64,000 nucleotides of DNA from positions 5,737-69,736 of the forward strand of contig CAYGGE010000002.1 of NCBI GenBank assembly GCA_964349485.1, given 5' to 3'. This document shows, in pieces, positions 9,307 to 45,938 of this stretch (position 1 is the stretch's first letter; the number at the start of each line of letters is the position of its first letter). Below the pieces are notes generated by a model. It worked only from the letters and a program-made list of their open reading frames with translations. It searched no databases and was not told the DNA's origin. Made by a program: the position numbers and the translations under genes. Source of the DNA: an uncultured Candidatus Saccharibacteria bacterium (GTDB taxonomy: Bacteria > Patescibacteriota > UBA1384 > CAYGGE01).

Positions 9307-11031
9307 ATGAAACGTACGACAAGTGGACTCTCTGGTGCTCGCCTGGTTGTCTTGCAGGTAGCGACGGTCGTAATCACGTTCATCGTGATCGGCCGTCTTT
9401 TTGATCTATCGATAATCCGACATGCCAATGCTTTAATTACGGCAAAAAATCAATACGGGATCACCCAGACACTGCCTGCGACTAGAGGAATCATCGGTCT
9501 GCGCGACTTAAATGGGGGCAAGGACTATCCGGTCGCGATGAACGTTATCTCTTATCAGGTAGTGGCTGACCCGTTTCTGATTAAGGATCCACTGAAGGTC
9601 GCAGCTGTATTAGAGCCGGTGATCGGCATCTCGGTTAGTGATCTTCTGCCCAAACTATCTGATAAAAAGAAACGTTTCGTCATACTCAAAAAAAAGCTGG
9701 TAAAAGAAGACTCGAAAAAAGTTGATGACTTGAATCTACGAGGTATTAGTCTACAGCCAGTTGAGTCTCGACTATACCCAGAACTAACCTTAGCGGCTCA
9801 CACAATTGGTTTTGTCGATGCCAGTGGTGTAGGACGCTATGGGATTGAGAGTTTTTTTAACGAAGATCTGACAGGTTATGATGGCGAATTGGTCGGGGAG
9901 AAAGATGCCAAACGACGCATTATCAGTGAGGGTAAGTCAGCTAAGCCACGTGACGGTACAGTTATTACCTTGACTATCGATCGGAGTCTTCAGTTTATAG
10001 TTGAAAATCAATTACGCGAATCGCTTAAAAAATATGAAGCGGAGGGTGGTTCGGTGGTGATCATGGATGTTAAAACTGGCGCCATACTCGCACTGGCAAA
10101 CGAGCCGGGGTACGATCTGAACACGTTTAACGAGGTTCCTGCTGACCAACAAGAGCGCTTTATCAACCAAGCAGTCAGTGGAACATGGGAGCCGGGCTCA
10201 ATTTTCAAGACATTTACCCTGGCCGCCGCAATTGATCTCGGTCTGATTCAGCCTGACACCAAGGCTGATCTAGGTTGTAGCGCTAAAGTTGATGGCTTTG
10301 AGATACGTAACTCTCAAGACAAGTGTTATCCAACGCCAGACGTTACTCAAATCTTATCTGATTCGATTAACTTGGGAACGATATGGGCGGCCGATAAAAT
10401 AGGTAACCAGGACTTTGGTAAGTACATTTCAGACTTTGGCTTCGGCAGTAAGACGGGCATTGAACTACAGCCTGAGTCGACTGGTAAGGTAAGCGATAGT
10501 AACAAGTGGAAAAATGTTAATCGGGCGACCATCTCATTCGGCCAAGGCTTATCGGCTTCACCACTGCAAATAGTCGCCGCATATGCCTCAATAGGCAACG
10601 GTGGAAAGCTAATGCATCCTTATCTTGTCGCGAAGCGGGTAGACAGTAATGGCAAGGTCGTCGAGACAAAACCTCGCGAAGTTCGACAAGTTATTAAACC
10701 TGAAACAGCCGCCATGATGACCACCATGCTTGAGAAAGTGGTCACCGAGGGTCATGGCAAACGGGCTGCAGTTCGTGGTTATCGAATCGGTGGTAAAACG
10801 GGGACGGCTCAAGTAGTGGGAAAAGATGGCACTTACGAAGAAGATGCCCACATTGGCTCATTTGCTGGGATTTTCCCTGCTAATGAACCGCGCTTCGCGA
10901 TGATCGTAAAGCTTGATCGACCGAAGGCTGTCGAGTTTGCCGAGAGTTCCGCCGCACCAACCTTCAGTGAGATCGCCAAGTGGTTATTGCATTATGCCAA
11001 GGTGCCACCGACTGAAGTTGTATCACCATAA
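9307..11031 (+). CDS. ftsI: Penicillin-binding protein transpeptidase FtsI (PBP2/3 class)
   Basis: SIFK (SxxK), SDS and KTGTA motifs. N-terminal TM. Confidence 0.85.
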   Translation: MKRTTSGLSGARLVVLQVATVVITFIVIGRLFDLSIIRHANALITAKNQYGITQTLPATRGIIGLRDLNGGKDYPVAMNVISYQVVADPFLIKDPLKVAAVLEPVIGISVSDLLPKLSDKKKRFVILKKKLVKEDSKKVDDLNLRGISLQPVESRLYPELTLAAHTIGFVDASGVGRYGIESFFNEDLTGYDGELVGEKDAKRRIISEGKSAKPRDGTVITLTIDRSLQFIVENQLRESLKKYEAEGGSVVIMDVKTGAILALANEPGYDLNTFNEVPADQQERFINQAVSGTWEPGSIFKTFTLAAAIDLGLIQPDTKADLGCSAKVDGFEIRNSQDKCYPTPDVTQILSDSINLGTIWAADKIGNQDFGKYISDFGFGSKTGIELQPESTGKVSDSNKWKNVNRATISFGQGLSASPLQIVAAYASIGNGGKLMHPYLVAKRVDSNGKVVETKPREVRQVIKPETAAMMTTMLEKVVTEGHGKRAAVRGYRIGGKTGTAQVVGKDGTYEEDAHIGSFAGIFPANEPRFAMIVKLDRPKAVEFAESSAAPTFSEIAKWLLHYAKVPPTEVVSP

Positions 11032-11096
11032 TCAGAGCCAAACATATAACGCGCCAAGACTTTACTGACCCACTAAACTAACCTATACTAAACCCT

Positions 11097-12125
11097 ATGG
11101 AAGCAATCTTACTTGATACCAATGCCCTAACGCGCATCTTCGGTCTGACGGTTTTGTCATTTGTAACGTCCATGCTGATCACGCCGGCGTTTACTACCTT
11201 TCTATATAAAAACCGCTTAGGCAAGAAAATCCGCCAAACGGATTTTAATGAAAAAGCGGCGCCAATCTTCTATAAACTGCATAAGCACAAAACCAATACA
11301 CCGACGATGGGTGGATTGTTGATCTGGGGAGTCGCAGCTGTACTGACGATTATCTTTAACCTGTCGCGTCAGGCGACTTGGCTTCCTCTATTTGTCTTAG
11401 TGATGAGTGGGGTGATCGGTGCGATTGACGACCTCTACAATATTAACGGAATCGGACCAAATAATGGTGGACTTCGATTTCGACACAAATTACTGATCTA
11501 TCTGGTCATTGCGGTGATCGGTGCTTTATACTTTGCCTTCAAATTAGAATGGATATATCGCGGGATCCATATTCCTGGAGTAGGCGATATTGCTCTTGGC
11601 TATTGGTACGTCCCACTCTTTATCACGGTCTTAATCGGTACCAGTTTTGCGGTCAACCAAACAGATGGACTCGATGGCTTAGCCGGCGGATTACTGGTTA
11701 TGGCATTTATGGCTATGGGTGGTATTGCTTTCTTCCAGGGACAGTTTGGTCTGTCTGCTTTCGCCGGCACACTAGTCGGAGCGATCCTGGCGTTTCTCTG
11801 GTTCAATGTCCATCCGGCGCGCTTTTTTATGGGCGATACGGGTTCAATGGCTTTAGGCATGACCCTAGCCGTCATCGCCTTCCTGACGAACACCGTCTTC
11901 ATCTTACCAATCATCGGTTTCGTCTTTGTTATTGAGGCATTATCGACCATCATCCAGATCTTCTCTAAGAAATTCTTGAAGAAAAAAGTCTTTCTTTCCG
12001 CACCAATACATCACCATTTAGAAGCGATTGGCTGGACTGAGACACGAATAGTGGAACGGGCCTGGATTATCGGGGCAGTTCTTGCAGTTTTTGGTCTAGT
12101 CTTGGCCCTAGTGGGTCGAGGCTAG
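11097..12125 (+). CDS. mraY: Phospho-N-acetylmuramoyl-pentapeptide transferase MraY
   Basis: Polytopic membrane protein with DDxxN and NQTDGLDGLAGG motifs of GT family 4. dcw context. Confidence 0.85.
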   Translation: MEAILLDTNALTRIFGLTVLSFVTSMLITPAFTTFLYKNRLGKKIRQTDFNEKAAPIFYKLHKHKTNTPTMGGLLIWGVAAVLTIIFNLSRQATWLPLFVLVMSGVIGAIDDLYNINGIGPNNGGLRFRHKLLIYLVIAVIGALYFAFKLEWIYRGIHIPGVGDIALGYWYVPLFITVLIGTSFAVNQTDGLDGLAGGLLVMAFMAMGGIAFFQGQFGLSAFAGTLVGAILAFLWFNVHPARFFMGDTGSMALGMTLAVIAFLTNTVFILPIIGFVFVIEALSTIIQIFSKKFLKKKVFLSAPIHHHLEAIGWTETRIVERAWIIGAVLAVFGLVLALVGRG

Positions 12126-12660: not shown

Positions 12661-13446
12661 ATGATCCAATCCAAATTATTGCTTCAGTTTCCTGAGCTTG
12701 TACATGGTTATTCCGACCGATTAGATGGCGATATGGGAGCAAAGCGATTAGCTGGTGAAACCTATGGTGCAAACGAACAAGCGAAGTGGCTGGCTAATCG
12801 ACAGCGCATCTTTGATCGGCTGGGTATTCCAACGAGTCAAGTGATATTAGCCAGGCAGACCCATAGTGCCACCGTGGAGTCGCTCAATCTAACACATATG
12901 GGTAAGGCACATGATAATCTAGCCACTTTTGCCTCGGCCGATAGCTTCATCCTGACCGATCCCGATATCTTTGCCACTGTTTTTACTGCCGATTGCCTAC
13001 CTATCTTTTGTTACGAGCCGAAAAAACGTATCGTCGCGGCAATGCATGCCGGGTGGCGGGGGATTGCCTCGGGGATAATCAAGACATCTATTATGCAGAT
13101 CAGATCATCGGGTGGCATGATAGAAGACTTACGTGTCTGGATTGGGCCCCATATCAAGGTCTGTCACTACGATGCCGATCCAACAGTCGACAGTTTTGTC
13201 GAAAAACAGAAGGCATTTCAAAATGCGCCCGGGATTCTTATCGAGAAGGGTAATAAGAAAATGATTGATCTAACTGCCCTTGCTGTGAGACAATTAACTG
13301 AAGCTAGTGTATTTGATCAACATCTTGAGATTGGCGATTGCACTGTTTGCGAAAGAGAAAAATATTACTCCTATCATGCGGTCCACGGTAAGAACATTGG
13401 TCGGATGATGGGGGTTATTGGCGTGAGGAACTCCGATGGATCTTGA
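12661..13446 (+). CDS. pgeF: YfiH/PgeF family (DUF152) purine nucleoside phosphorylase/peptidoglycan editing factor
   Basis: QTHSATV, TADCLPIF, HAGWRG and CHYD motifs. Confidence 0.75.
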   Translation: MIQSKLLLQFPELVHGYSDRLDGDMGAKRLAGETYGANEQAKWLANRQRIFDRLGIPTSQVILARQTHSATVESLNLTHMGKAHDNLATFASADSFILTDPDIFATVFTADCLPIFCYEPKKRIVAAMHAGWRGIASGIIKTSIMQIRSSGGMIEDLRVWIGPHIKVCHYDADPTVDSFVEKQKAFQNAPGILIEKGNKKMIDLTALAVRQLTEASVFDQHLEIGDCTVCEREKYYSYHAVHGKNIGRMMGVIGVRNSDGS

Positions 13447-14809
13447 AGGGAAAAAAGTTGCAGTGATCGGTTACGGTGTGAACAATGCCGAATTGCCACA
13501 ATATTTGAAAAATCAAGGCGCTATCGTCACGATCTGCGACGAAAATGAACTATTAGCTACCGATGACCCAGAACTGTCGTATCAATTGGGTAGTGATTAT
13601 CTAAACAATCTCGAGCGGTTTGAGATGATTTTTCGGACTCCTGGCCTTTCGTACTACACTAAAGAACTGCAAGTCGCAAAGCAGGCAGGATCAACACTTT
13701 CCAGCCAAACAGATCTCTTTATCCGGCATTTTCCGGGAAAAGTTATCGGCGTGACAGGAACCAAGGGTAAAGGGACAACGGCCAGTCTAATTTACGCTAT
13801 TTTGCTCGAGGCAAAACAGCAAGGTGAACTTGATGGATCGATCTATCTTGCTGGCAATATTGGCACCTCCCCTCTTCAATTTCTTGATGCGGCCGGAGCC
13901 CAGGATTGGGCAGTGCTTGAGCTATCTAGTTTCCAGCTCCAAGGACTCGAAATCAGTCCACAGATAGCCGTGATACTTGACGTCACTGTCGATCATCTTG
14001 ACTATCATCGTGACGAAGCCGAGTATCTATCCGCCAAGAAGAATATCGTCCGGTATCAAAAACCTGAAGATGCTGTGGTACTCAATATCGACTCATTGAC
14101 CAGCATACTATTTGCTGAGGAGACACCGGCTGTGACTTACTTTTTTTCGCGAAGAAAAACGGTTGATCAAGGGACTTTTGTTAACATGCAGTCAGGTCAA
14201 ATTGTACTCCGACTTCCCGAACGTGAGGATTCAACAATTTGCGAGACTAAGGACGTACAACTAGTCGGGGAGTACAATCTTAGCAATATCACTGCGGCAG
14301 TCACTGCCGGTGCACTTGCTGGGGCGAGTAACAAGAGTGTTCGTACGGCAATTACCTCGTTTCATGGGCTACCACACCGTTTGGAGCTCATCGCCACAAA
14401 ATCGGGGATTCGTTATTACGATGATTCATTCGCAACCACACCTGATGCGGCAATCGGTGCGATTGCCGCGTTCTCCGAGCCAATTACCCTGATTGCCGGG
14501 GGATCGTGGAAAGGTGTTGACTATAGCGAGCTAATAGAGACGATTAACACTAGTACAGTTACGACCGTAATATGTCTAGGGCCAGAAGGTCAGCGAATCA
14601 AGAAAATGCTTGATGAGCTGGGTTCTACTATACAGGCTGTCACCGTTGCAGGCACAATGGCGGACATTGTTTCTGTAGCCCGTAGTGTTACAAGCCCGAG
14701 AGGAATTGTATTGCTCTCACCGGCTGCTGCCAGTTTCGACATGTTTAGAAACGCCACTGATCGGGGAGATCAGTTTAAGCAAGCCGTTTTGGCTTTACCA
14801 AACGATTAA
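13436..14809 (+). CDS. murD: UDP-N-acetylmuramoylalanine--D-glutamate ligase MurD
   Basis: KVAVIGYGVNNA N-terminal fold. GVTGTKGKGTT P-loop. dcw order. Confidence 0.85.
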   Translation: MDLEGKKVAVIGYGVNNAELPQYLKNQGAIVTICDENELLATDDPELSYQLGSDYLNNLERFEMIFRTPGLSYYTKELQVAKQAGSTLSSQTDLFIRHFPGKVIGVTGTKGKGTTASLIYAILLEAKQQGELDGSIYLAGNIGTSPLQFLDAAGAQDWAVLELSSFQLQGLEISPQIAVILDVTVDHLDYHRDEAEYLSAKKNIVRYQKPEDAVVLNIDSLTSILFAEETPAVTYFFSRRKTVDQGTFVNMQSGQIVLRLPEREDSTICETKDVQLVGEYNLSNITAAVTAGALAGASNKSVRTAITSFHGLPHRLELIATKSGIRYYDDSFATTPDAAIGAIAAFSEPITLIAGGSWKGVDYSELIETINTSTVTTVICLGPEGQRIKKMLDELGSTIQAVTVAGTMADIVSVARSVTSPRGIVLLSPAAASFDMFRNATDRGDQFKQAVLALPND

Positions 14810-14828
14810 TATGTAGAGAGGTGAGCGC

Positions 14829-15944
14829 GTGCCCAAAGACCACAATAAAGGAACGGTCGATTATACCCTACTCCTCATTATCTTCACTTTAGTGGTGATC
14901 GGTTTATTGGCAGTCTCCTCAGCGTCAGTCGTGGTCTCTTTCGATCGATTTGGTCAAAACTTTTATTATTTACGTACCCAGCTTTTTGCAACCCTGTTGG
15001 GCCTGATCGCCATGGCGATCACTACGGCTATCGACTATCGCTATTGGCGTAAACTAGCTTATCCACTAATGCTTGTGACTATCGCCTTGCTTGTCCTCGT
15101 CCTGATCCCTGGTATCGGACGTGAACTAGGAGGGGCTAGGGCCTGGGTCTACATTGGTCCGATTAACTTTCAGCCCTCTGAAATTGTAAAATTGACCTTC
15201 CTTCTCTATTTTGCGGCTTGGCTAGAGCGTCAGGGTGAAGGAGTGCGAAGACTACATACTGGTTTTATCCCGTTTCTAACCATGCTTGGAGTGATTGCCC
15301 TCCTAGTCATGATGCAACCTGATCTAGGCACCCTGACGATCATTGTAGCCATCGCTGTCGCGATGTTTTTTACTGCCGGCGCGAGCTGGGTTCAGATGGG
15401 GGCAATCAGTGCTGGCGCGGTCGGCATTTTCATGCTATTGATCAAAGTTGCACCGTACCGACTCCAGCGTATAGCGACGTTTCTAGAGCCGACAAAGGAT
15501 TGTCTGGGGTCGGGCTATCAGATCTGCCAATCGTTGCTTGGCATCGGTAGCGGTGGGTGGTTCGGTCTAGGTTTCGGCCAGTCGAAGCAGAAGTTTCTCT
15601 ACTTACCGCAAGCTCACACTGACTCAATCTTTGTAATTCTAGTTGAGGAATTGGGTTTTCTGCGAACGACTTTGATTCTCGTCTTGTTTGGACTTGTCGG
15701 TTATCGTGGCTATAAAATTGCCGAGCATGCCCCGGATATGTTCGGTCGTTTGGTAGCGACGGGCATTACTAGTTGGCTAATCTTCCAGACGTTTGTCAAT
15801 ATTGGTGCCGCATTGAGTATCGTGCCATTAACCGGGATTACTCTGCCGTTCATATCCTACGGCGGCTCATCGATGATCCTAACTTTAGCGGCGAGTGGTA
15901 TATTATTAAACATTTCAAAGCAGATTAAGAGTGAGAACGCATGA
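14829..15944 (+). CDS. ftsW: SEDS-family peptidoglycan glycosyltransferase FtsW
   Basis: GTG start with RBS. Ten-TM SEDS protein. QPSEIVKL motif. Confidence 0.85.
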   Translation: MPKDHNKGTVDYTLLLIIFTLVVIGLLAVSSASVVVSFDRFGQNFYYLRTQLFATLLGLIAMAITTAIDYRYWRKLAYPLMLVTIALLVLVLIPGIGRELGGARAWVYIGPINFQPSEIVKLTFLLYFAAWLERQGEGVRRLHTGFIPFLTMLGVIALLVMMQPDLGTLTIIVAIAVAMFFTAGASWVQMGAISAGAVGIFMLLIKVAPYRLQRIATFLEPTKDCLGSGYQICQSLLGIGSGGWFGLGFGQSKQKFLYLPQAHTDSIFVILVEELGFLRTTLILVLFGLVGYRGYKIAEHAPDMFGRLVATGITSWLIFQTFVNIGAALSIVPLTGITLPFISYGGSSMILTLAASGILLNISKQIKSENA

Positions 15945-17056
15945 CAAAAAGACGTATAGTGATTGCTGGCGGTGGGACGGGCGGTCATATTACTCCAGCT
16001 CTTGCAGTTGCAGCCGAATTAAGTAATGAACAGACCGATATTAGTTTTATCGGTCAGGCTTCTGGTATGGAATCTGAGTTAGTTGCCAAAGCAGGCTACC
16101 CCTTCCACGGAATTAAGGCAGGTAAACTACGTCGATATTTTGATCTTGCCAATGTCACCGATCTTTTCAAGACGATTAGCGGTTTCTTTGCCTCATATAC
16201 GAAACTTAAAGAGCTTCGACCCAAGGTTATTTTCTCCAAGGGTGGTTACGTGGCTGTCCCTGTTGCCTATGCCGCCGCAATGCTCCATATTCCGGTCGTT
16301 ACTCACGAATCTGATGCGGTGATCGGTTTAGCTAATCGGTTGATCGCTAAAAAAGCCAGACTGATTTGTACTGGGTTTCCTAGTGTTAACTATCCAGAAT
16401 CACTTCGTAAAAAAATCGAATATACCGGTAATCCAGTCAGGGAAATTTTCGAGCGAAAAATACCCGCGAAAATTGCTCTCTGTGAGCATTACAAAATCGA
16501 CCCAAAATCACCTATAGTTTTAGTGATTGCCGGTAGCCAAGGATCTAGAGCAATAAACCAACTGATTTTCGATAGCCTAGAGAAGCTGCTGCCAACTATC
16601 TCAATTATACATATTACGGGCGTAAATCATCTGAGTGAAGCGAAGTCAGTACGTGCACTACTTCCAGAGGATCTGCGTAAGCGATACTATGTGCATGATT
16701 TCGTAGGTGACGAGCTTCCAGAGTACATGGCATTAGCTGATCTTGTCGTCAGTCGTGCTAGCGCGGCGGTAATTAGCGAACTAGCGATTATGAACAAGCC
16801 TACGATTCTTATCCCCCTACCAACTGCCGCCTCTGATCACCAACAGGTCAATGCCAAAATCTTAGCCAAGGCGAAAGCCGCACTCTTAGTTCCAGAGTAT
16901 GATTTGACGGCTTCGATCTTGCAAGAGAAGCTGATTGCTCTCATCACAGACAATACACAGCTTGAACAGCTCTCAAGGACAATTGGGGCGTTTGCGACTC
17001 CCGATGCATCAGTCAAAATTGCACGTCTGATCGAGCATGTGGCTAAAGAAAGTTAA
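15941..17056 (+). CDS. murG: UDP-GlcNAc--undecaprenyl-PP-MurNAc-pentapeptide GlcNAc transferase MurG
   Basis: IAGGGTGGHITPALAVAAEL. Confidence 0.9.
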   Translation: MTKRRIVIAGGGTGGHITPALAVAAELSNEQTDISFIGQASGMESELVAKAGYPFHGIKAGKLRRYFDLANVTDLFKTISGFFASYTKLKELRPKVIFSKGGYVAVPVAYAAAMLHIPVVTHESDAVIGLANRLIAKKARLICTGFPSVNYPESLRKKIEYTGNPVREIFERKIPAKIALCEHYKIDPKSPIVLVIAGSQGSRAINQLIFDSLEKLLPTISIIHITGVNHLSEAKSVRALLPEDLRKRYYVHDFVGDELPEYMALADLVVSRASAAVISELAIMNKPTILIPLPTAASDHQQVNAKILAKAKAALLVPEYDLTASILQEKLIALITDNTQLEQLSRTIGAFATPDASVKIARLIEHVAKES

Positions 17057-17069
17057 CGAAGAAGGTGAT

Positions 17070-18464
17070 ATGAACCAGTCAAAACCACAGATTCATTTTA
17101 TTGGCATCAAGGGCGTTGGTATGTCGGCTTTGGCCTTGGTAGCTAATGGACTCGGCCACAATGTGAGTGGCTCGGATGTGAATGAACAGTTCATTACTGA
17201 TCAATCGTTGCAAGATGCTGGTATCTTTGTCGCTTCAGGATTTAATGCTGACCATATACCGACCGACACTGGACTTGTGGTGGTCGGAGGATCGTTTGAT
17301 CAAAACAATCCTGAAGTCATCGCGGCGAAGCAGAGAAACCTGCAAATCTTGACCTATTCCGAGTTTCTGGGTCAACTTTCAGATGATCAAAAAACTATCG
17401 CGATCGCCGGCACACATGGTAAAACGACGACTACCGCCCTATTAGCATATATTTTTGAACAATCTGGAGAGAAGCCAAGCTATGTGATTGGTACTGGAAG
17501 CGTGGCAGGCCTCAAGGCACCGGGTGCAGCGGGAGAAGGAGAATATTTTATTACTGAGGCAGACGATTATAAACGCTCAGTTGCCGATCCAACCCCTAAG
17601 TTTCTTGATCTTAAACCCTACGCGGCAATCGTTACCTCTATTGAACATGATCACCCCGATCTTTTCCCTACTTTGCAGTCCTGTACCGATGCTTTCGTAA
17701 AATTTGCGACCAAGCTTAGGCCCGATGGTTTTCTTGTGGTTAATGCCGACGATGCGGGAGTAACTAGCTTGCGGGCGATAATTACTAATAAAAAAGTCAT
17801 TAGTTACGGTCATGACAATGGTGCCGACTATCGGATTACCCTATCGCAAACTGACGCCGAGAGCCCAGTGCGTTTTTCGCTAGTTACGGCGACTACGACC
17901 TATGGACCATTTGAGTTAGGCCTTCGTGGTAGACACAATTTGTCTAATGCCGCCGCCGCCGTGACGATGGCTTTAGAGCTCGGCTTGTCGCCTGCGAAAA
18001 TCCAAGCTATCTTACCAACATTCGAGTCTGTTGAACGTCGCTACGACTATGTTGGCAAGCGGGGAGAGATTGATATTTACGACGATTATGCCCATCATCC
18101 GACCGCTGTTGCCGTAACCTTAGAGACCTTACGTATTCAGTATCGTCGCCGGCCTTTATGGTGTGTCTTCCAGCCACATACTTACTCTCGTACAAAAGCG
18201 TTACTTGAAGAATTTGGTGCGGCTTTTGGTGCGGCTAGTATGGTCATCATTACCGATATCTATGCTTCAGCGAGAGAAACTGAAGTCACGGTCACAGCTA
18301 ACGAACTAGTACGGGCTATCGCCGCAAATCGCGACTCAGTACAATACGTCAGTCACGATACACTAGAAAAGTATCTAAAGGAGAATTTACCCTCTAATGC
18401 AGTATTGGTGACCATGGGTGCCGGGGATATATATAAAATAGGACGAGCACTCCTCGATAGCTAA
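17070..18464 (+). CDS. murC: UDP-N-acetylmuramate--L-alanine ligase MurC
   Basis: IHFIGIKGVGMSALA... GTHGKTTTT. The start is taken at the ATG with RBS GAAGGTG. The ORF-track start lies 11 codons upstream. Confidence 0.85.
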   Translation: MNQSKPQIHFIGIKGVGMSALALVANGLGHNVSGSDVNEQFITDQSLQDAGIFVASGFNADHIPTDTGLVVVGGSFDQNNPEVIAAKQRNLQILTYSEFLGQLSDDQKTIAIAGTHGKTTTTALLAYIFEQSGEKPSYVIGTGSVAGLKAPGAAGEGEYFITEADDYKRSVADPTPKFLDLKPYAAIVTSIEHDHPDLFPTLQSCTDAFVKFATKLRPDGFLVVNADDAGVTSLRAIITNKKVISYGHDNGADYRITLSQTDAESPVRFSLVTATTTYGPFELGLRGRHNLSNAAAAVTMALELGLSPAKIQAILPTFESVERRYDYVGKRGEIDIYDDYAHHPTAVAVTLETLRIQYRRRPLWCVFQPHTYSRTKALLEEFGAAFGAASMVIITDIYASARETEVTVTANELVRAIAANRDSVQYVSHDTLEKYLKENLPSNAVLVTMGAGDIYKIGRALLDS

Positions 18465-18467
18465 TTT

Positions 18468-19532
18468 ATGATAGACAATTCATTACTCGAACAATTGAGG
18501 TTAAAAATCCCAGGGGTGGCTCAAAATGAGCCATTATCGCGCCACAGTACTATCCGTGCTGGCGGTTTAGCAGCCGCATTTCTGGTCACTAAGACAATCG
18601 ATGAGCTGGTCAGTGCCGTTACGGTCGTAAGGGAACTAGGCATACTCTTTCGAATTATCGGCGGTGGCAGCAATACTCTCTTTTCTGATAAAGGTTTTGA
18701 TGGCCTCGTAATTAAAAACCTGGCCAATGGCATCGATATCGCTGGTGCCAGAGAGGAACTTGATCCGATACCTTGGCAGCCAGTGGCCGAGATCCGTCAC
18801 GAAGCGGCTAATCCTAGCAAATATGTTTCATTTCTCGATCTAAATTATGATGAGCGACCTGGCGATACTCTTGTTACGGTTGAGTCTGGGATCAATCTGA
18901 CGGCCCTAATAATTCGATCCCTCGATGCTGGTCTACTTGGTCTTGAGTGGTTTGGTGGTATACCCGGGACGCTCGGTGGGGCAATATACAACAATATTCA
19001 CGGTGGAACTCACTTTATTGGCGAACGAGTCAACAGTGTTGAGGCATTAACTGGAGATGGATCAAGGCAGAGTTATGCACATGAAGAGCTGGCTTTTAGT
19101 TATGACAAGAGTCGTTTTCACGATACGGCGGAGGTAATCCTGCGTGTTGAGCTATCTTTGACTAAAGGCACAAAACTGGAGATTGATCGAGCCGACGATA
19201 CTTTCCGCCAATGGGTTAGACGCAAAGGTGAAATGCAACCAAAGCTCGGTTCGCTAGGCTCAACCTTTCAAAATATTAGCCAAGCTGATCGACAAAAGAT
19301 TGGCGCACCGACGACGTCTGCCGGATGGATTATCGAGCAGGTAGGGTTAAAGGGACATCGAATTGGTGACGCTCAGATTGCACCTGAACATGCCAATTTT
19401 ATTATTAATCACGGTGGCGCGACCTCGAGCGATATCTATGCGCTAATCCGTCTAGCCCAAAAAGAGGTGAAGAAGAAGTTTGGTCTCGATCTTCAACTTG
19501 AGGTGTTTCTGGTGGGAGAATTTGATTACTGA
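18468..19532 (+). CDS. murB: UDP-N-acetylenolpyruvoylglucosamine reductase MurB
   Basis: FAD-binding GGGSNTLF. C-terminal NHGGATSSD ... LEVFLVGEF. Confidence 0.85.
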   Translation: MIDNSLLEQLRLKIPGVAQNEPLSRHSTIRAGGLAAAFLVTKTIDELVSAVTVVRELGILFRIIGGGSNTLFSDKGFDGLVIKNLANGIDIAGAREELDPIPWQPVAEIRHEAANPSKYVSFLDLNYDERPGDTLVTVESGINLTALIIRSLDAGLLGLEWFGGIPGTLGGAIYNNIHGGTHFIGERVNSVEALTGDGSRQSYAHEELAFSYDKSRFHDTAEVILRVELSLTKGTKLEIDRADDTFRQWVRRKGEMQPKLGSLGSTFQNISQADRQKIGAPTTSAGWIIEQVGLKGHRIGDAQIAPEHANFIINHGGATSSDIYALIRLAQKEVKKKFGLDLQLEVFLVGEFDY

Positions 19533-20506
19533 TGGATCTAGTACTTTTACGTCGAAAACTGAAAGGGCGTCTAAAGGAAAATGTAGTCATTCGGGATTAT
19601 GTTGTTTCTTCAGTTGGTGGAGTTGTCGACTACCTTGTAATCTGTGAGACTGTAGAGTCAGTCATAGAAACTGTCACAATTGCTAAAGAAGCGAACACTC
19701 CCATGGTGGTAATTGGTCAAGGAAGTAATGTTCTTTTCTCAGACGTTGGTTATGCTGGATTAGTGATCGTAAACCGGACGAGTCGTTTGTCGGTCATCCC
19801 AGAAAAAAGTCAGGTGATCGCTGATAGCGGCGTTGTGCTAACCCGACTGATGATGGAGTCGGCGGCCCATGACTTAACTGGACTTGAGTTCTTCTCGTCA
19901 CTTCGAGGCACTATCGGTGGTGCAACGGTCAATAATCGACAAGCTAATGGAGTGGCGATCGGTAAGTTTATTAAAGGCGTGACTGTCTTGATGCCTGATG
20001 GTGCAGTTGTTCATCACCCTGTATCATGGCTCGATTTTGAGCCGTTTATCAGTCGACTGATGCGGGTACGAATGGCCGATCAGACAACATTGATCCCCAC
20101 AATTTTAACCGTTACGTTACAACTCTCGCGCAACAAAAAAGAAGAAATTGTCCGAAAGATTCAACATTTTAGCACACTAAATAAGAAATTCTGGCCACTT
20201 GAAGAGCCATCGATTGGGCCTATCTTCCGTGATCCGGCCCTTGATCAACCGGCTGAGGCCTTTATGCAAGACATCGCCCTTAAAAAAATGAAAATCGGCC
20301 GGGCTAAAATATATCCGGCCAATCACAACTTCATCTTGACACACGATCGAGGTTTAGGCGCGGGGAAAACGGTTGATATTGCCCAGCTCGTACTGGCCAT
20401 GAAAAAGAATGTCCTAGATAATTATGGCGTCTTTCTTGAGGAAGCTTTTGAGTACATAGGTAATTGGGAAAACCTAGAGACCGATGCTGACCATACTATT
20501 ATATAA
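19532..20506 (+). CDS. Second MurB-like paralog (FAD-binding PCMH fold) in tandem
   Basis: VVIGQGSNVLFSD ... NHNFILTHDRG ... LEEAFEY. It sits immediately after murB with an overlapping stop/start. Confidence 0.6.
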   Translation: MDLVLLRRKLKGRLKENVVIRDYVVSSVGGVVDYLVICETVESVIETVTIAKEANTPMVVIGQGSNVLFSDVGYAGLVIVNRTSRLSVIPEKSQVIADSGVVLTRLMMESAAHDLTGLEFFSSLRGTIGGATVNNRQANGVAIGKFIKGVTVLMPDGAVVHHPVSWLDFEPFISRLMRVRMADQTTLIPTILTVTLQLSRNKKEEIVRKIQHFSTLNKKFWPLEEPSIGPIFRDPALDQPAEAFMQDIALKKMKIGRAKIYPANHNFILTHDRGLGAGKTVDIAQLVLAMKKNVLDNYGVFLEEAFEYIGNWENLETDADHTII

Positions 20507-20509
20507 CAC

Positions 20510-21550
20510 TTACCCAAAACTGAGTACAGGGTCACGATCTAACTCCTCGATATTCTTAACATAATCGTTGTGTCTTGTCTGATAATATGCCGCTACTGCG
20601 ATCATCGCGGCATTATCGGTGCACAGTTTTTTTAGATTGGGATAGTGGACAGTCACCCCAGATGGCTTAAGGGCTTTTCTTATGGCTTGTCGAAGAGCAG
20701 TGTTGGCGATGACTCCCCCGCCAAGTAAGACTTGTTTGATCTTGTACTGTTTTATAGCTGGAATTAGCTTAATGAGAATTGCATGGATAGCGACACGTTG
20801 GAAGCTAGCGGCAATATCAACGATTTCTTGTTTGTTTAGTTCGTGCCCGTCGGCCGTCATTTTCTTAATCATATAGAGGACAGAAGTCTTCAGGCCAGAG
20901 AAACTAAAGTTGAGGTCGTTAGAATGTTTCATGGGAATTGGGAAGTCGTACGCATTAGCATCACCCTCTTTTGCTAGACTAGCCAATACCGGTCCACCTG
21001 GATAACCAAGGCCGAGCATTCTGGCAACCTTATCGAAAGCTTCACCCATTGCATCGTCAAGTGTCGCACCGACAATCTCGAAGTCGAAGTCGTCTTTGAT
21101 GAGTACTAATTCAGTGTGGCTACCAGAGAGGAGCAGGGCGAGACTAGGGTGGGTGATGGCGTCGATTGAAGATTTACCTGCTTTTGTTTTGGCAAAGTTA
21201 GCATAGATATGACCAATCATATGATTGACCGCGACTAAGGGTTTGTTAGAGAACGTAGCAAGTTCTTTCGCTTTGCGAACGCCGACTTCTAGGGCGATAG
21301 CCAGACCTGGGCCATAGGTCACCGCAAAGACATCGATCTGTTCGAGTGTAAGGCCTGAGCGTTTAAGTGCCAACTTCATGACTGGGTCGAGTTGCTCGTT
21401 GTGGGCCCGTTGAGCGATACTCGGTACGACACCGCCCCACTGTTTATGGAGTTCGATCTGCGAAGATATCGCGTTTGTCAAAATGACATCGTCACGGCTG
21501 ATCGCGACTGAAGTCTCATCACAACTGGTATCGATGGCTAAAATATGCAT
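20510..21550 (-). CDS. tsaD: tRNA N6-adenosine threonylcarbamoyltransferase TsaD (Kae1/YgjD family)
   Basis: MHILAIDTSCDETSVAI and NHMIGHIYA motifs. Confidence 0.9.
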   Translation of the reverse strand: MHILAIDTSCDETSVAISRDDVILTNAISSQIELHKQWGGVVPSIAQRAHNEQLDPVMKLALKRSGLTLEQIDVFAVTYGPGLAIALEVGVRKAKELATFSNKPLVAVNHMIGHIYANFAKTKAGKSSIDAITHPSLALLLSGSHTELVLIKDDFDFEIVGATLDDAMGEAFDKVARMLGLGYPGGPVLASLAKEGDANAYDFPIPMKHSNDLNFSFSGLKTSVLYMIKKMTADGHELNKQEIVDIAASFQRVAIHAILIKLIPAIKQYKIKQVLLGGGVIANTALRQAIRKALKPSGVTVHYPNLKKLCTDNAAMIAVAAYYQTRHNDYVKNIEELDRDPVLSFG

Positions 21551-21584
21551 AACAAGTAATAATTAAAAACGAATAATGAATAAT

Positions 21585-22682
21585 TTATAGTATAGGTTGG
21601 TCTGAGTAGGTGATCGTTCGTTGATGTTCATTATCGCCGTACTCAAGCTTGACCCAAATTATCTTGGCCTCAGCTGTATAGTTACTCAAAACGTCGGCAA
21701 TTTTGTCGGCCCATTCGATCGCTAATACAGCGTTTGAATCTATCATCTTTGCGAGACCTAAATCAACAAACTCTTTACTGTCAAATAATCGCCAGGTGTC
21801 GATATGTATAAACTGATTAGGAGTATCACCGTAATTGAAATTGTACTCCCTAGATAGAGTGAAGGTCGGCGAAGTGATTGGTTTTGTTACGCCTAGGTCT
21901 TGACCAATACCTTTAGAGAGCTGAGTCTTGCCGGCGCCCATCTCGCCGACTAAGGCAAAGATAAGGGCTCGCTCATTGAGATATTGGCGGTATTGTCCAA
22001 CCAATTGTGCACCGATCTCCTGGGTCTCGGCGGCGCTTTCAGTAGTGACAATGGTTGCCTCTGACAATTTAATATCTCCTTGGCGAAGGATAGTTGGCTG
22101 GTCAAGCGTCGTATCGATTACCGTCGACGGTTCATTTTTTTGGAGAGCTCCGGCGTCGATAATTAGATCGATCAATGACTTTTGATGGGCGGAAATGTTT
22201 TCCAAGATGTCGGAGATTGCATACGGTCGTTTTTTGTATGAGGCGTTGGCTGAACTTGCCGTTATCGGCTTACCATATGCGGCTAAGATCTTACGGATTA
22301 CGCTCGAGTCAGGAATTCGAATTCCTAAAGTAGCGCGTTCAGATTCAACACCTTTGGCCACCTTACCTTTGGATTTCGAGATGATGGTGATTGGCCCCGG
22401 GAGAAAGTTCGTATACAGCCGTTGTGCCTCACTATTAAGTTCGACATACTGACTAGCCATCGCCTGGTCGTTTACGGCGATTGATAGCGGTTTACCCTGC
22501 CGGCGAGCTTTATAGCGCAATAATCTATCTACGGCGGCTTGATTAGTCGCGTCGGCGCCTATACCGTAAACCGTCTCAGTCGGGTAGATAACTAAACCAC
22601 CGGCCGCGAGTACACGGCAGGCAGTATCAATAATCTGTTGGGACTGGGTTGTTTTACAATCAAGGGTAATCATAGTCACCAT
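21585..22682 (-). CDS. Fusion protein. N-terminal domain: L-threonylcarbamoyladenylate synthase TsaC/YrdC. C-terminal domain: TsaE (YjeE P-loop).
   Basis: N-terminal PTETVYGIGADA...SANASYK. C-terminal GEMGAGKTQLSKGI...SPTFTLSREY...HIDTWRL. Confidence 0.7.
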   Translation of the reverse strand: MVTMITLDCKTTQSQQIIDTACRVLAAGGLVIYPTETVYGIGADATNQAAVDRLLRYKARRQGKPLSIAVNDQAMASQYVELNSEAQRLYTNFLPGPITIISKSKGKVAKGVESERATLGIRIPDSSVIRKILAAYGKPITASSANASYKKRPYAISDILENISAHQKSLIDLIIDAGALQKNEPSTVIDTTLDQPTILRQGDIKLSEATIVTTESAAETQEIGAQLVGQYRQYLNERALIFALVGEMGAGKTQLSKGIGQDLGVTKPITSPTFTLSREYNFNYGDTPNQFIHIDTWRLFDSKEFVDLGLAKMIDSNAVLAIEWADKIADVLSNYTAEAKIIWVKLEYGDNEHQRTITYSDQPIL

Positions 22683-22759
22683 TTATACTATAAAACGATC
22701 ATTTTTTGAAGTCCCCATGCTCTTCTCACCCTATAAGCAATGACGTATAATGAGTACAT

Positions 22760-23908
22760 ATGAGGTCAATTATATTATCGCTCCTAGAGCGCTATCTTGT
22801 TCGGCTCGCGCAAGTTACTTTGGCGATCGACAAACCGGTGATTATTGGCATTACCGGAAGCGTCGGTAAGACAACCGCCAAAGAAGCCGTATTCCATCTT
22901 CTTGAAACAGCCAAACTACCGGTTCGTAAAACTGGAGGCAACTTAAACTTCGATATTGGTATCGCCATGACAATCCTGGGTTATGATCATAGCCCAGCGA
23001 TCTGGGAATGGCCATGGGCAATATTGATTGTTCATCTCAATTGGTTGTTACAGCTCTCAAGGCTTACCCATTTACCAGAATATTTAGTAGTCGAGATGGG
23101 AATCGATCGACTGGGCGATATGAAACGTCTGACTAAATGGCTTAAACCATCGATTGGGGTGGTCACCTGGATCGGAGAAGGGCACCATCTGGAATACTTG
23201 AAAGATGCCCCAACCATAGCTAGGGAAAAAGGCGAGATGCTGAGGGTCTTACCTAAGAACGGGCTAGCTATCTTGCCAGCTAAAGATCCGAATATTGCAA
23301 TCTTGAAAGCGATGTCTAGTGCTGATACAGAGCTATTTCAGGCGACGGGTGTTGAGTCGATCGAAGAAATACTTGCTATCATTGCCAAGAGACTAGATAT
23401 CCAGGCATCGATTGCTGAAGAGTCAATGCAAACCTTCAAACAACCTAAAGGACGACTTAATATCTTCGTCGGAATAAAGGATACGACTATTCTTGATGAT
23501 TCTTACAACACCAGTCTGCCAGCCATCCGGATGGCTTTGACTAAACTTAGTGAGCTTCAGGCCAAAAGAAAAGTCGCAATTTTGGGTGATATCCTGGAGC
23601 AAGGGGACTATGAAAAGGAACATCATGAAAAGGCGGCTGATCTGGTGCATGAAACTGCCGATCTATTCATTGGTGTGGGTAGGCGCATGCAAAATGTTAA
23701 GCCTGATTATTGGTTCGCTGACCCTGATGAAGCTGCCCTCAAAATCCCCGATCTGCTTGAGGCTGGTGACGGTGTACTAGTTAAGGGTTCGCAAGGTATG
23801 CGGCTGGAAAAAATTAGTTATTCATTAATTGCTGATAAGCGGCAAGCAAAGAGGTTACTCCCCCGTCAGGACAGACGATGGCAACAGATCCCGTTTGGAA
23901 ATCCGTAG
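22760..23908 (+). CDS. Mur ligase family protein, MurF-like (382 aa). It appears to lack the usual N-terminal domain.
   Basis: IIGITGSVGKTTAKEAV P-loop near the N-terminus. C-terminal Mur ligase domain. Confidence 0.55.
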   Translation: MRSIILSLLERYLVRLAQVTLAIDKPVIIGITGSVGKTTAKEAVFHLLETAKLPVRKTGGNLNFDIGIAMTILGYDHSPAIWEWPWAILIVHLNWLLQLSRLTHLPEYLVVEMGIDRLGDMKRLTKWLKPSIGVVTWIGEGHHLEYLKDAPTIAREKGEMLRVLPKNGLAILPAKDPNIAILKAMSSADTELFQATGVESIEEILAIIAKRLDIQASIAEESMQTFKQPKGRLNIFVGIKDTTILDDSYNTSLPAIRMALTKLSELQAKRKVAILGDILEQGDYEKEHHEKAADLVHETADLFIGVGRRMQNVKPDYWFADPDEAALKIPDLLEAGDGVLVKGSQGMRLEKISYSLIADKRQAKRLLPRQDRRWQQIPFGNP

Positions 23909-23975
23909 GGACAGTATATGTCTCATGCCTCATGCAAGAGCTATATACTGTCTGATATAACTCAATCTATATCGT

Positions 23976-24812
23976 GTGGAGGGCACTATCTTTGTGCAGA
24001 CCAAACAGCGGCGTTTCGCTAGAAATAGACATGTCTATCGACAAGACTATACCTATTTCGACCGGACCAAAGAGATAAAACAGGGAGTATTTATCCCGAC
24101 TTGGGTTTTACCACTCTTCTTTGCCTTGGCCACACTTGCTTTCCTGATTTGGTTTTTTACAAGTGCTCCATGGCTTGCGGTGAAACATATTACAATTGAA
24201 GGTCAAGCAACGTCTGAGGTGATCAAGGAAATCAACAAACTTAAAGGTCAAAACGTCTTGTGGTTGTCGATTACCCGACCTGAAACGGCGATCATTCAGC
24301 ATCAACCTAGTATTAAAGAAATCCAAATTCTAAGAGGCATACCGGACACGCTTCGGGTGAAGTTGATCGAACGGAAACCAGCCCTCTTATGGCAAGTTAG
24401 TAACCAACTCTATACGATCGACGCTACGGGCTTCGTCTACAAACAGGAACTGTTGGCTTCGCGCGACGGCACATACATCTACCCCGACACAAATCTGGCG
24501 GTAGTCACCGATACTAAAGGCATTCCTGTCGAGATCGGCCAGACGGCTGTTCGTTCAGATTTCATTAGTTTTATCCAGTTGCTCCAAGAGCGGTTACCTG
24601 CGGATTACGGCCTCAAATTTCTAAGAGCCGAGATTAATGAAACGACTTTCAATGTTTCTATTCTTACCGACGCCGGTTGGAAAGTGATGTTTGATACGAC
24701 CAGGAAGATTGAACCTCAGCTTAAGACGTTAAAAGATGTGCTGGACGTGAAAAGGGCAGAGATAAAAGAGTATCTCGACCTCAGGGTACGGGGCTGGGTC
24801 TACTATAAGTAA
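23976..24812 (+). CDS. ftsQ: FtsQ/DivIB-like cell division protein (TM plus POTRA)
   Basis: Single TM. POTRA-like ...IKEIQILRGIPDTLRVKLIERKPALLWQ...YTIDATGFV. Confidence 0.6.
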   Translation: MEGTIFVQTKQRRFARNRHVYRQDYTYFDRTKEIKQGVFIPTWVLPLFFALATLAFLIWFFTSAPWLAVKHITIEGQATSEVIKEINKLKGQNVLWLSITRPETAIIQHQPSIKEIQILRGIPDTLRVKLIERKPALLWQVSNQLYTIDATGFVYKQELLASRDGTYIYPDTNLAVVTDTKGIPVEIGQTAVRSDFISFIQLLQERLPADYGLKFLRAEINETTFNVSILTDAGWKVMFDTTRKIEPQLKTLKDVLDVKRAEIKEYLDLRVRGWVYYK

Positions 24813-41763: not shown

Positions 41764-42630
41764 TCAGAGATATGGGTTTGGTGCGTCGTTGATCAGAACG
41801 TGCCCCTCGATCGTCCGAAGAAAATCGAGCAACTTTGGGTTATCATTCCCAAAGAAGTAGGTTTGACGACCTTCGTCTGTTATTCCCTCCATGAAGTGCT
41901 TTCCGGACTTTAGTCGTGCGATCACGTCGTCAAGGTAGTAAGTCCTCGAATGTTCGGCGTGGTGCAAAGGCTTATTATGCCGTATCTGTAGATGGAGGAG
42001 AGCGAACTCCGGCATATTAAATGTGTGGAAATAGATCTCTGTGCCCTGTGGCTCATCGATTCCATACACATTCGCAAGCTGATCGTAGACATGTTCTCGC
42101 AGTCGCTCGAGGCTGGTGACATCTGACGCCTCAAGATCGAGTGGTGTCGCCAGGTATCGTACACACAGCTCTTCTTCGATCTCTCGTATACGCAGTTGTA
42201 ACAGACGATCGACTGTAATCGGTCCATCCTGTGGATCATGGCGCAGGAAAGGCTCGATTGCCCTGTGCGCATGCCAGGCTACCAGTTCGAGCCGACCAGT
42301 GTTTCTCCAAGATCTCGCAAAGTTCTGGAAGAGAGTCTCAGGAGCGTACTTGGGTAAGTTTGGTCGGACGAAAAAGGCACCATCAGCAGTCCTGCTGAAC
42401 AAGCTTGGACACTGGTTGAGAAAATCCCGATCAACGGATGGCGCACCGTTGAGGAATTCTCTAACGAAGTCAGGGAGTCTTACCTGGTGGTAGGCAACCC
42501 TCAGATTCTCAAGGGTGTTGTCCGGAAACCGGACAATTTGACAATATGGTATACCGTAGCGATTATCCTTATTCCGGTTCATTGCCTTAGCTTTCTGGAC
42601 TAGTGTTATACGGGTCAGAACACCAAACAC
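41764..42630 (-). CDS. Hypothetical protein with Rx(4-6)H-like HEPN-type motifs
   Basis: HAHRAIEPFLRH and RHNKPLHH. No confident family assignment. Confidence 0.4.
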   Translation of the reverse strand: MFGVLTRITLVQKAKAMNRNKDNRYGIPYCQIVRFPDNTLENLRVAYHQVRLPDFVREFLNGAPSVDRDFLNQCPSLFSRTADGAFFVRPNLPKYAPETLFQNFARSWRNTGRLELVAWHAHRAIEPFLRHDPQDGPITVDRLLQLRIREIEEELCVRYLATPLDLEASDVTSLERLREHVYDQLANVYGIDEPQGTEIYFHTFNMPEFALLHLQIRHNKPLHHAEHSRTYYLDDVIARLKSGKHFMEGITDEGRQTYFFGNDNPKLLDFLRTIEGHVLINDAPNPYL

Positions 42631-44220: not shown

Positions 44221-44427
44221 CGGTCTCCTCCATAGGCCGTCATGGTGACGGCGGTAGCGAACGACTAAAGTATCGAATTAAAGAGCGCCAGAGGATAGAG
44301 GTAGTAATACTGCACCTCGATCGTGACGCAAAAGTATAGCATAAATCATCAGGTTTGTCAACCTGTTAAGAACTAAAAAACAGCGGTTCAGCTGTATCAG
44401 TTGAAATTCATATTTTTATAGAAGTGA

Positions 44428-45936: not shown

Positions 45937-45938
45937 GT

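Follow-up and report, generated by a model that had tools for sequence, protein, structure and literature searches.

Two MurB-family genes, one of them predicted to be non-catalytic, in the dcw cluster of a Candidatus Saccharibacteria bacterium

The MurB1-MurB2 locus and the fold of its products

The window analyzed here is a 64,000-nucleotide stretch of contig CAYGGE010000002.1 (GenBank assembly GCA_964349485.1) from an uncultured Candidatus Saccharibacteria bacterium. In its division and cell wall (dcw) cluster, murC is followed by two consecutive open reading frames (ORFs) of the MurB family, which we refer to as MurB1 and MurB2. Reference residues are numbered according to E. coli MurB, the sequence of which was checked and found identical to that of PDB 1MBB (342/342 residues). 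The features of the locus, in window positions, are as follows.

17037-18464, plus strand: murC, the ligase joining uridine diphosphate (UDP)-N-acetylmuramic acid (UDP-MurNAc) and L-Ala (UDP-MurNAc:L-Ala ligase), directly 5' of MurB1 in the same operon
18468-19532, plus strand: MurB1, a YD-type MurB (see below) of 354 amino acids, the presumed catalytic UDP-N-acetylenolpyruvoylglucosamine reductase
18741-18860 (approximate), plus strand: lineage-specific insertion of ~40-48 residues in the flavin adenine dinucleotide (FAD)-binding domain of MurB1 (residues ~92-131)
19101-19106, plus strand: MurB1 codons Y212-D213 of the YDxS signature, with Asp for Arg159 (D213 codon, 19104-19106)
19530-19534, plus strand: TGATG stop/start overlap of MurB1 and MurB2, in which the TGA at 19530-19532 shares one base with the ATG
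19532-20506, plus strand: MurB2, 324 amino acids, MurB-derived and proposed to be a non-catalytic partner
19715-19729, plus strand: MurB2 G62-Q-G-S-N66, the retained FAD pyrophosphate-binding loop motif (GxGSN)
20180-20182, plus strand: MurB2 N217, in place of Arg214
20210-20236, plus strand: MurB2 S227-IGPIFRD-P235, the former active-site loop (Ser229 to Pro230, Asn233 to Asp234)
20435-20455, plus strand: MurB2 L302-EEAFE-Y308, the former LExEV motif (Glu325 to Ala305)
20510-21550, minus strand: tsaD, convergent with MurB2 and three bases beyond it, marking the end of the murB1-murB2 transcription unit

An earlier note on this stretch, made from the sequence without database searches, had described two consecutive ORFs with the MurB FAD-binding PCMH fold. 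The two frames lie where it had placed them, and Pfam, NCBIfam and AlphaFold models compared by Foldseek agree on the fold; the motifs that it quoted occur in MurB1 (NHGGATSSD and LEVFLVGEF) and in MurB2 (NHNFILTHDRG and LEEAFEY), and the MurB2 start indeed overlaps the MurB1 stop, by the single shared base in TGATG. Both Pfam domains exceeded their gathering scores in both proteins: FAD_binding_4 (PF01565) reached 57.4 bits in MurB1 and 69.4 bits in MurB2, and MurB_C (PF02873) reached 99.5 and 38.8 bits, respectively. The best NCBIfam matches were all MurB equivalog models; the TIGR00179 cut-off of 144.5 was passed by MurB1 (180.1) and not by MurB2 (129.4), and both proteins scored below the NF010480 cut-off of 259 (216 for MurB1 and 158.7 for MurB2). 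The two proteins share 26% identity (BLASTP, E = 1e-26).

The AlphaFold models have predicted local distance difference test (pLDDT) values of 91.3 for MurB1 and 77.8 for MurB2, and the top 18 PDB matches of each were MurB only, with template modeling (TM) scores of 0.65-0.82 over both models and 0.69-0.82 for MurB2. Other PCMH flavoenzymes gave partial or high-deviation alignments, with TM scores mostly of 0.35-0.45 (maximum 0.58) and root-mean-square deviations above 7 Å. A closer match of MurB2 to another FAD-linked oxidase family, which the earlier note had named as the result that would speak against its reading, was looked for, and both NCBIfam and Foldseek favored MurB; an assignment to the DprE1, D-lactate dehydrogenase or sugar lactone oxidase families was rejected, with NCBIfam E-values of 0.03 or higher at scores far below the cut-offs, and weaker Foldseek TM scores.

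Type II MurBs (PDB 4PYT, Listeria 3TX1 and S. aureus 1HSK) share with both proteins the three-domain PCMH/MurB fold, the Pfam domains and the slot after murC (TM scores of 0.78-0.82 for MurB2 and 0.75-0.77 for MurB1). MurB1 also has the general-acid Ser, Asn233 and Glu325 in common with them, but has Asp at position 159, Lys at position 214 and His-Gly-Gly where they have Gly-Ala-Tyr(123-125), and is longer by an insertion of ~48 residues, whereas MurB2 lacks Arg159, Arg214, Ser229, Asn233, Glu325 and the AGW UDP-binding motif. These comparisons support the view that MurB2 is a divergent member of the MurB family that would not be an ordinary MurB.

Catalytic residues of MurB2 and selection on the protein

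According to the summary given in PMC12844806 of the work of Benson and colleagues (1997), the substrate carboxylate is bound by Arg159 and Glu325 and the diphosphate by Tyr190, Lys217, Asn233 and Gln288, while Ser229 acts as the general acid in the MurB reaction (Benson, Walsh and Massey 1997). Residues at these and other positions were counted in MurB2 and 29 orthologs (n = 30), in MurB1 orthologs (n = 24), in other YD-type proteins (n = 43) and in canonical MurBs (n = 106). The earlier note had proposed scoring the catalytic Arg, Ser and Glu, and all three are replaced in MurB2, together with most of the substrate ligands. Position 159, which is R in 100 of the 106 canonical MurBs, is F or L and variable in the MurB2 clade. 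Arg214, which provides a positive charge next to flavin N1/O2 and stabilizes the reduced flavin, is retained in 102/106 canonical MurBs and is N in 30/30 MurB2 orthologs, a pairing with N217 that also appears in the HMMER alignment to 4PYT. The Ser229 position is P in every ortholog (30/30), the Asn233 position is D in 29/30, and Glu325, present in 106/106 canonical MurBs, is A in 29 of the 30. The changes P111 to R, G123 to Q and Y125 to N are each found in 30/30 members of the clade, G266 of the AGW motif is E in 28/30, and the H288 position is Q or N. Altogether, 12 positions that are near-universal in MurBs have been exchanged in the MurB2 clade for different residues, each at least 90% conserved.

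The FAD-binding loop has been kept: E. coli G47, G49 and S50 are found in 30/30 orthologs and N51 in 29/30, and in the MurB2 loop itself IGQGS and VLFSD are invariant, with N66 in 29/30. In view of the residue losses, MurB2 is very probably inactive as a UDP-N-acetylenolpyruvoylglucosamine reductase. The best supported prediction from these alignments is that it would be unable to bind nicotinamide adenine dinucleotide phosphate (NADPH) or enolpyruvyl-UDP-GlcNAc in the canonical way, having neither the general acid nor the two carboxylate ligands.

A useful comparison is the laboratory-made S229A variant of E. coli MurB (PDB 1UXY), which is reported to be severely impaired. Both S229A and MurB2 keep the MurB fold and lack the general acid; the former keeps FAD, and the latter keeps the FAD-loop motif and has Pro at the Ser229 position. 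However, S229A carries one engineered substitution and can still bind substrate, whereas MurB2 has naturally lost the whole set of substrate and NADPH ligands and appears to have been kept by selection.

Between the window and its closest relative, the locus L008, synonymous sites are saturated in nine genes (proportion of synonymous differences, pS, of 0.75-0.84), and the dN/dS ratio is not computable. The proportion of nonsynonymous differences (pN) in this comparison is 0.098 for ftsW, 0.115 for MurB2, 0.203 for MurB1, 0.258 for murC and 0.320 for murG, which places MurB2 second lowest among the nine neighboring genes compared. Of the 14 contig-matched pairs, 13 have a MurB2 that resembles its window counterpart as closely as, or more closely than, MurB1 does. 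Conservation within the MurB2 clade is 0.80 for the C-terminal domain and 0.78 for the FAD domain, while identity to canonical relatives is 31% and 41%, respectively. The alignment of the 30 orthologs has 73 invariant columns, and more than 30 clusters at 90% identity have an uninterrupted frame. In a search of 1.84 billion representatives, the MurB2 clade corresponded to a single 50%-identity representative (608 bits), the next match scoring 270 bits. Because of the low pN, the clade-wide conservation and the intact frame, MurB2 appears to be under strong purifying selection and not to be a decaying pseudogene. The loss of catalytic residues, an intact frame and purifying selection across lineages are together what is expected of a pseudoenzyme. 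The earlier note, which had suggested neofunctionalization or a regulatory pseudo-enzyme, therefore pointed to the right class of explanation; the local duplication that it had also implied did not hold (see below).

As a separate observation, the orthologs of MurB2 have a conserved acidic C-terminal tail, W...(E/D)xLIEYE, which is absent from canonical dcw-type MurBs. In the window, the MurB2 C-terminus (20456-20503) carries a tail of similar size that ends in DADHTII, and no other frame encodes LIEYE. The LIEYE tail of the orthologs could be a docking peptide.

Origin of the pair, related proteins and gene neighborhood

These data raise the question of where the two genes come from. The earlier note had treated them as tandem paralogs and proposed a phylogeny of the two copies as a check. 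Neighbor-joining (NJ) trees with a simple distance (71 sequences, 297 columns, 100 bootstraps) contradict local duplication: MurB1 and MurB2 were never sisters (0/100), and tandem duplication is ruled out on this basis. The MurB2 clade, degenerate forms and canonical dcw-type MurBs grouped together in 100/100 replicates, and MurB1 grouped with the YD type in 97/100. Because of these bootstraps, MurB2 is taken to be the resident dcw gene, descended from the murB that normally follows murC in the dcw cluster of Patescibacteria, and MurB1 to belong to another deep MurB lineage that came to lie between murC and MurB2. Co-transfer of murC with MurB1 is not claimed: the MurC NJ tree is unresolved, with the tandem clade non-monophyletic in 80/100 replicates. 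Window murC is somewhat closer to murC of YD-type loci (32-39% identity) than to the degenerate MurC of L026, L022 and L006 (26-29%).

The relatives of MurB2 fall into three layers. The innermost is a tight clade (51-100% identity) in which all members carry the GP, D and EA replacements. It is followed by canonical single-copy MurBs of other Patescibacteria (30-42% identity), such as Berkelbacteria P0042, in which the YRxS, GSxFKNP and LEEExEY motifs are intact and the C-terminal EYxGxW signature is shared, and then by ordinary bacterial MurBs. The closest canonical relatives of MurB2 are the single-copy dcw MurBs P0042 and P0034 (37-40% identity), encoded at the outgroup loci L001 and L004, where murC, one canonical murB, ftsQ and recJ follow one another. 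MurB2 has the C-terminal EYxGxW in common with them; unlike MurB2, they keep the YRxS, GSxFKNP and LEEE(I/V)EY motifs and are the sole murB of their clusters.

Synteny in relatives, another check that the earlier note had proposed, bore out the tandem order with its start/stop overlap, both of which are kept in L003 and L008-L011. The order murD-ftsW-murG-murC-MurB1-MurB2 is found in L008 (titled Berkelbacteria) and L009-L011 (titled Saccharibacteria) as far as the contigs reach, and L008-L010 run on into the inverted tsaD; L003 starts inside MurB1 and continues with MurB2, tsaD, tsaC-tsaE, a Mur ligase, ftsQ and recJ. Orthologs of both genes are carried by 14 or more additional contigs, matched by their equal lengths. 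The overlap is TGATG in the window and L008, 11 nucleotides in L009 and L010, and 4 nucleotides by coordinates in L011 (MurB1 ends at 6004 and the MurB2 match starts at 6001) and L003. Since the overlap persists though its form changes, it points to selection for coupled, roughly stoichiometric translation of MurB1 and MurB2.

Another important question is whether MurB1 is a competent enzyme. The earlier note had called its C-terminal motifs canonical, and this is true of the Ser229, Asn233 and Glu325 positions, which are kept as S265, N269 and E345, each in 24/24 orthologs, along with His288. It is not true of the Arg159 and Arg214 positions, occupied by Asp and Lys, nor of the insertion of ~48 residues. 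We refer to this combination (R159D plus the ~48-residue insertion) as the YD type, after its YDxS motif. Its distinguishing residues are nearly invariant: the Arg159 position is D in 24/24 MurB1 orthologs and 43/43 other YD-type proteins, the Arg214 position is K in 24/24 and 42/43, the G123 position is H in 24/24 and 43/43, and the Y125 position is G in 24/24 and 41/43. In the other YD-type proteins, the Ser229 position is C in 37 and S in 6, N233 is kept in 41/43 and E325 in 42/43. P111 and G266 are kept as P and G in both sets, as is the GxGSN loop, with S, A or T at position 50 in the other YD-type proteins. The insertion is unaligned in the BLASTP comparison of MurB1 and MurB2, measures 44-63 residues in YD-type homologs against ~10 in other MurBs, and includes a stretch (residues 103-116) with pLDDT below 50 that was modeled as disordered.

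MurB1 has its relatives in insertion-bearing YD-type proteins of Dojkabacteria, Pacebacteria and many other lineages. A scan of metagenomes with a YD-type profile yielded 80 loci (854 kb), with flanks of up to 10 kb on each side and shorter ones on small contigs; no second MurB-like ORF beside the YD-type gene was found within these flanks in any of the 80 loci of other lineages. The YD gene directly follows murC in 21 of the 80, sometimes with ftsW and murG nearby, and three of these 21 loci lie on contigs of 0.3-1.05 Mb. The YD-type MurB is a Patescibacteria-wide, putative active-site variant, of which we found no characterized member in the literature. Because the YD type occurs without a second MurB-like gene within the flanks of 80/80 loci, MurB1 is predicted to be self-sufficient and most likely performs the MurB reaction by itself.

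MurB2 belongs to a broader group. Among the next 146 representatives retrieved with the MurB2 profile, the R159 / S(C)229 / E325 triad is missing from ~77, so that degenerate MurB-like proteins number at least 77 clusters at 50% identity, with more among the top matches of a search with their alignment; residue calls in the very divergent sequences rest on MAFFT alignments, of which the motif windows were inspected. These proteins share the Patescibacteria EYxGxW C-terminus and have no common set of replacements, though Ser to Pro is frequent. Their GxGSN loop is degraded in many cases but kept in the MurB2 clade, and the related degenerate copies evolve fast (29% mean identity). Of these degenerate MurB-like proteins, which form a large and varied set in Patescibacteria that is apparently undescribed, MurB2 is the best conserved. 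A full-text literature search found no description of a catalytically dead MurB, the YD-type variant or degenerate MurB/MurC pairs of Patescibacteria. Natural MurC-MurB fusions (P0321, P0332 and P0348; 699-785 amino acids) with canonical MurB parts also occur among the MurB2-profile relatives.

In L006, L007, L022 and L026, the degenerate MurB-like gene occupies the dcw slot after murC with no adjacent MurB1, and no contig was shared by a YD-type and a degenerate MurB among the 120 matches listed per search. L026, a locus on the 385-kb contig JAXOUH010034028.1 (GCA_034680565.1), carries mraW, a penicillin-binding protein (PBP) gene, mraY, ftsW, murG, murC, the murB-like gene, ftsQ, recJ and radA, followed by a 314-amino-acid ORF, PBP1a, tyrS and argS; this ORF takes the position of the PIN/TRAM gene of the window and has no Pfam match on record. 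Because of the same backbone gene order, L026 is regarded as a relative. Adjoining the degenerate dcw murB, a MurC without Walker A is encoded in L026 (8566-9996), L022 (6640-8043) and L006 (3578-4981), with LGRYEAPL, LGEYESRL or LDEYEAPL instead of AGTHGKTT and no Mur_ligase_M Pfam match on record; these proteins share 26-29% identity with the window MurC and may be dead MurCs paired with dead MurBs.

The window MurC itself has an intact Walker A motif (GTHGKT), and its orthologs hold the same position in L008-L011. The co-directional dcw block consists of mraW, a class B PBP gene, mraY, a Cu-oxidase_4 gene, murD, ftsW, murG, murC, MurB1 and MurB2; the genes preceding murC, apart from the Cu-oxidase_4 gene, start as follows.

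7889, plus strand: mraW
9307, plus strand: class B PBP gene
11097, plus strand: mraY
13436, plus strand: murD
14829, plus strand: ftsW
15941, plus strand: murG

The earlier note had placed the pair at the end of the dcw cluster. It does end the co-directional block from mraW to murC, but the cluster resumes on the plus strand beyond the inverted tsaD and tsaC-tsaE with a short Mur ligase, ftsQ, recJ and radA. The position of tsaD is kept in L003 and L008-L010, and its orthologs in L003 and L024 have the TsaD Pfam match. Together with a Sua5/TsaC-TsaE fusion gene, tsaD forms an inverted segment inside the dcw cluster (20510-22682, minus strand), an arrangement kept in L003, L008 and L009. The Cu-oxidase_4 (YfiH/PgeF-type) gene lies between mraY and murD (12661-13446, plus strand). 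The Mur ligase at 22760-23908 (plus strand, 382 amino acids) has the middle and C-terminal domains only. In the relatives L022 and L026, a Mur ligase of ~411 amino acids lies between the PBP gene and mraY, where the window has no gene (11031-11097). The ligase at 22760-23908 looks like a relocated murF-like gene, murE and murF being its candidate identities. A promoter and terminator scan of 13000-24500 returned counts equal to the shuffled expectation and was hence uninformative.

Rfam and tRNA scans of the window found no rRNA by which to place the organism; as the taxon labels of the related genomes conflict, the placement used in this analysis is Patescibacteria (candidate phyla radiation). 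A recombinase zinc-ribbon ORF (44870-45874) abuts four tRNA genes (Trp, Thr, Thr and Tyr; 45863-46563), and upstream of it an ORF at 41764-42630 and an overlapping pair at 43378-44235 have no Pfam match; the region around the recombinase ORF and the tRNA cluster may be the remnant of an integrated element. A PPDK_N domain (51569-52549) and a phosphoenolpyruvate (PEP)-utilizers mobile domain (52560-53987) are encoded on the plus strand by two adjacent ORFs and not as one phosphotransferase. Two large ORFs encode 754 amino acids (34678-36942, minus strand; no Pfam match at E ≤ 1e-5) and 1438 amino acids (54131-58447, plus strand).

Possible role of MurB2 and rival explanations

As a whole, the locus is best explained, with about even confidence, as one catalytic MurB and one non-catalytic MurB derivative in a single operon. 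An ancestral murB would have been located between murC and ftsQ, with MurB2 as its descendant. Once a second MurB was available, MurB2 could have shed its NADPH- and substrate-binding residues, as well as those protonating the intermediate, while keeping the fold and the FAD-loop motif. MurB1 would reduce enolpyruvyl-UDP-GlcNAc to UDP-MurNAc, the two proteins would be made together through the conserved start/stop overlap, and MurB2, as a stoichiometric partner or scaffold, could hold or regulate a MurC/MurB/MurG precursor-synthesis complex. That MurB2 is a non-catalytic scaffold or regulator of peptidoglycan precursor synthesis is a possibility to which we give slightly less than an even chance.

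The concept has a parallel in the degenerate LytM factors EnvC and NlpD, which are non-catalytic homologs that activate amidases: there, too, peptidoglycan metabolism has kept a catalytically dead paralog in the role of partner or activator. However, EnvC and NlpD have an unrelated fold, are periplasmic and act by an established mechanism, whereas the partner role of MurB2 is only proposed. The role is plausible because MurC-MurB fusion proteins document physical Mur association (PMC4803751), Mur enzymes co-localize and form complexes with MurG (PMC6420597), and degenerate MurB and MurC persist in the dcw operon. The fusions, as in Verrucomicrobium spinosum MurB/C (PMC4803751) and in P0321, P0332 and P0348, represent an association that a non-catalytic MurB could preserve; they are single polypeptides with intact MurB domains, unlike the two separate MurB-like proteins found here, one of which is predicted to be dead. 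More than one murB homolog per genome is also described for Corynebacterium glutamicum, where murB2 is called essential (PMC9671496) in a passage that gives no sign of catalytic-residue loss. An extension of this reading, tentative and rather unlikely in our estimation, is that Patescibacteria keep a dead MurB, and some also a Walker-A-less MurC, as subunits of precursor synthesis or the divisome, while a YD-type MurB catalyzes, with MurB2 as the best-conserved member that retains the FAD motif.

Several observations weigh against the proposed partner role. The FAD loop has been retained, and in the old pocket most of the new residues are invariant; a ligand-binding or catalytic new function would fit these features at least as well, because a pure scaffold need preserve neither. 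The hints of a contact between MurB2 and a partner protein are indirect (the conserved overlap and the C-terminal tail of the orthologs), and MurB is monomeric in all known solved structures. That a second active MurB always exists alongside a degenerate one is a premise, and a catalytic MurB was not located for the L006, L007, L022 and L026 lineages. MurB1 itself lacks Arg159, and no assayed YD-type enzyme was found. Finally, the grouping of MurB2 with the other degenerate forms (96/100) comes from NJ-only trees and may reflect long-branch attraction.

The main rival to the scaffold reading is a repurposed flavoprotein: having kept FAD, MurB2 would bind or transform another small molecule in a rebuilt pocket (candidate residues R125, R136, Q137, N139, N217, W221, P230, D234, E242 and A305) and act as a new oxidoreductase or a cell-wall ligand sensor. 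The GQGSNVLFSD loop and the GGA motif occur in all 30 orthologs (N66 in 29/30), many other degenerate proteins having lost the loop; the twelve family-wide positions have been refilled with residues that are themselves at least 90% conserved; and, within the clade, constraint on the C-terminal domain equals that on the FAD domain. Nevertheless, Arg214, which stabilizes the reduced flavin in MurB, is lost, none of the known NADPH, diphosphate and UDP ligands survives, and no neighboring gene points to a new sugar or substrate pathway. The enrichment in the pocket is modest (9/13 pocket positions at least 90% conserved against ~46% of all positions), and the distant degenerate relatives in dcw clusters have no common replacement set, which argues against new conserved chemistry. 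We consider this function unlikely, though by no means negligible. That MurB2 still works as a UDP-N-acetylenolpyruvoylglucosamine reductase, in the form of a redundant isozyme with unconventional residues, is very improbable: the whole MurB fold with both Pfam domains, the name UDP-N-acetylmuramate dehydrogenase given to orthologs by some source pipelines and lineages such as L026, whose dcw cluster contains a degenerate copy alone, would fit it, but R159, R214, S229, N233 and E325, including the general acid Ser229, have been lost together, both the TIGR00179 and NF010480 cut-offs are missed, and an apparently competent MurB1 is encoded directly upstream.

An obligate MurB1-MurB2 heteromer with a shared active site, to which MurB2 would supply the arginine or arginines absent from MurB1, could account for the conserved overlap and for the nearly invariant R175, R178 and R180 of MurB2 in the segment corresponding to the missing Arg159 of MurB1. 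Yet R159D YD-type MurBs have no second MurB-like gene within the flanks of 80/80 loci, often standing directly after murC, basic residues at +3 are also common in canonical Patescibacteria MurBs, and solved structures place the active site of MurB within a single monomer, so that we regard such a heteromer as highly doubtful. The least probable explanation, and one we consider barely tenable, is that MurB2 has no protein function, being either a remnant in decay or an ORF retained solely because it influences expression of the operon in cis, as has reportedly been suggested to explain where murB lies in the dcw cluster of Bacillus subtilis. The loss of catalytic residues and the fast evolution of the related degenerate copies (29% mean identity) would be compatible with a relic; an intact frame in more than 30 clusters, 73 invariant columns, a pN of 0.115 at saturated pS and a conservation exceeding that of MurB1, murC and murG are not, and in this clade only the convergent tsaD follows MurB2, which leaves it without a downstream gene for coupling.

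MurB is usually treated as a simple, monomeric, single-copy essential enzyme and antibiotic target. Flavin synthesis is reportedly absent from Patescibacteria, and their flavoproteins are very few (PMC4508563), which makes an additional protein with an FAD motif in such a genome worth attention. The source annotations of MurB2-like proteins read 'UDP-N-acetylmuramate dehydrogenase' or 'FAD-binding protein', and because some degenerate copies bear the former name, metabolic reconstructions of Patescibacteria may mis-assign the catalytic murB gene. The YD-type MurB, which does without the textbook Arg159, is itself a putative active-site variant. MurB2 is probably a pseudoenzyme paralog of a well-known enzyme and a handle on non-catalytic Mur roles. 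If the proposed reading is true, a conserved, co-translated dead MurB would represent a second, non-catalytic job for the MurB fold in cell-wall synthesis; degenerate MurB and MurC in the dcw operon of ultra-small bacteria would imply the same and would offer a handle on the long-suspected complex of Mur enzymes.

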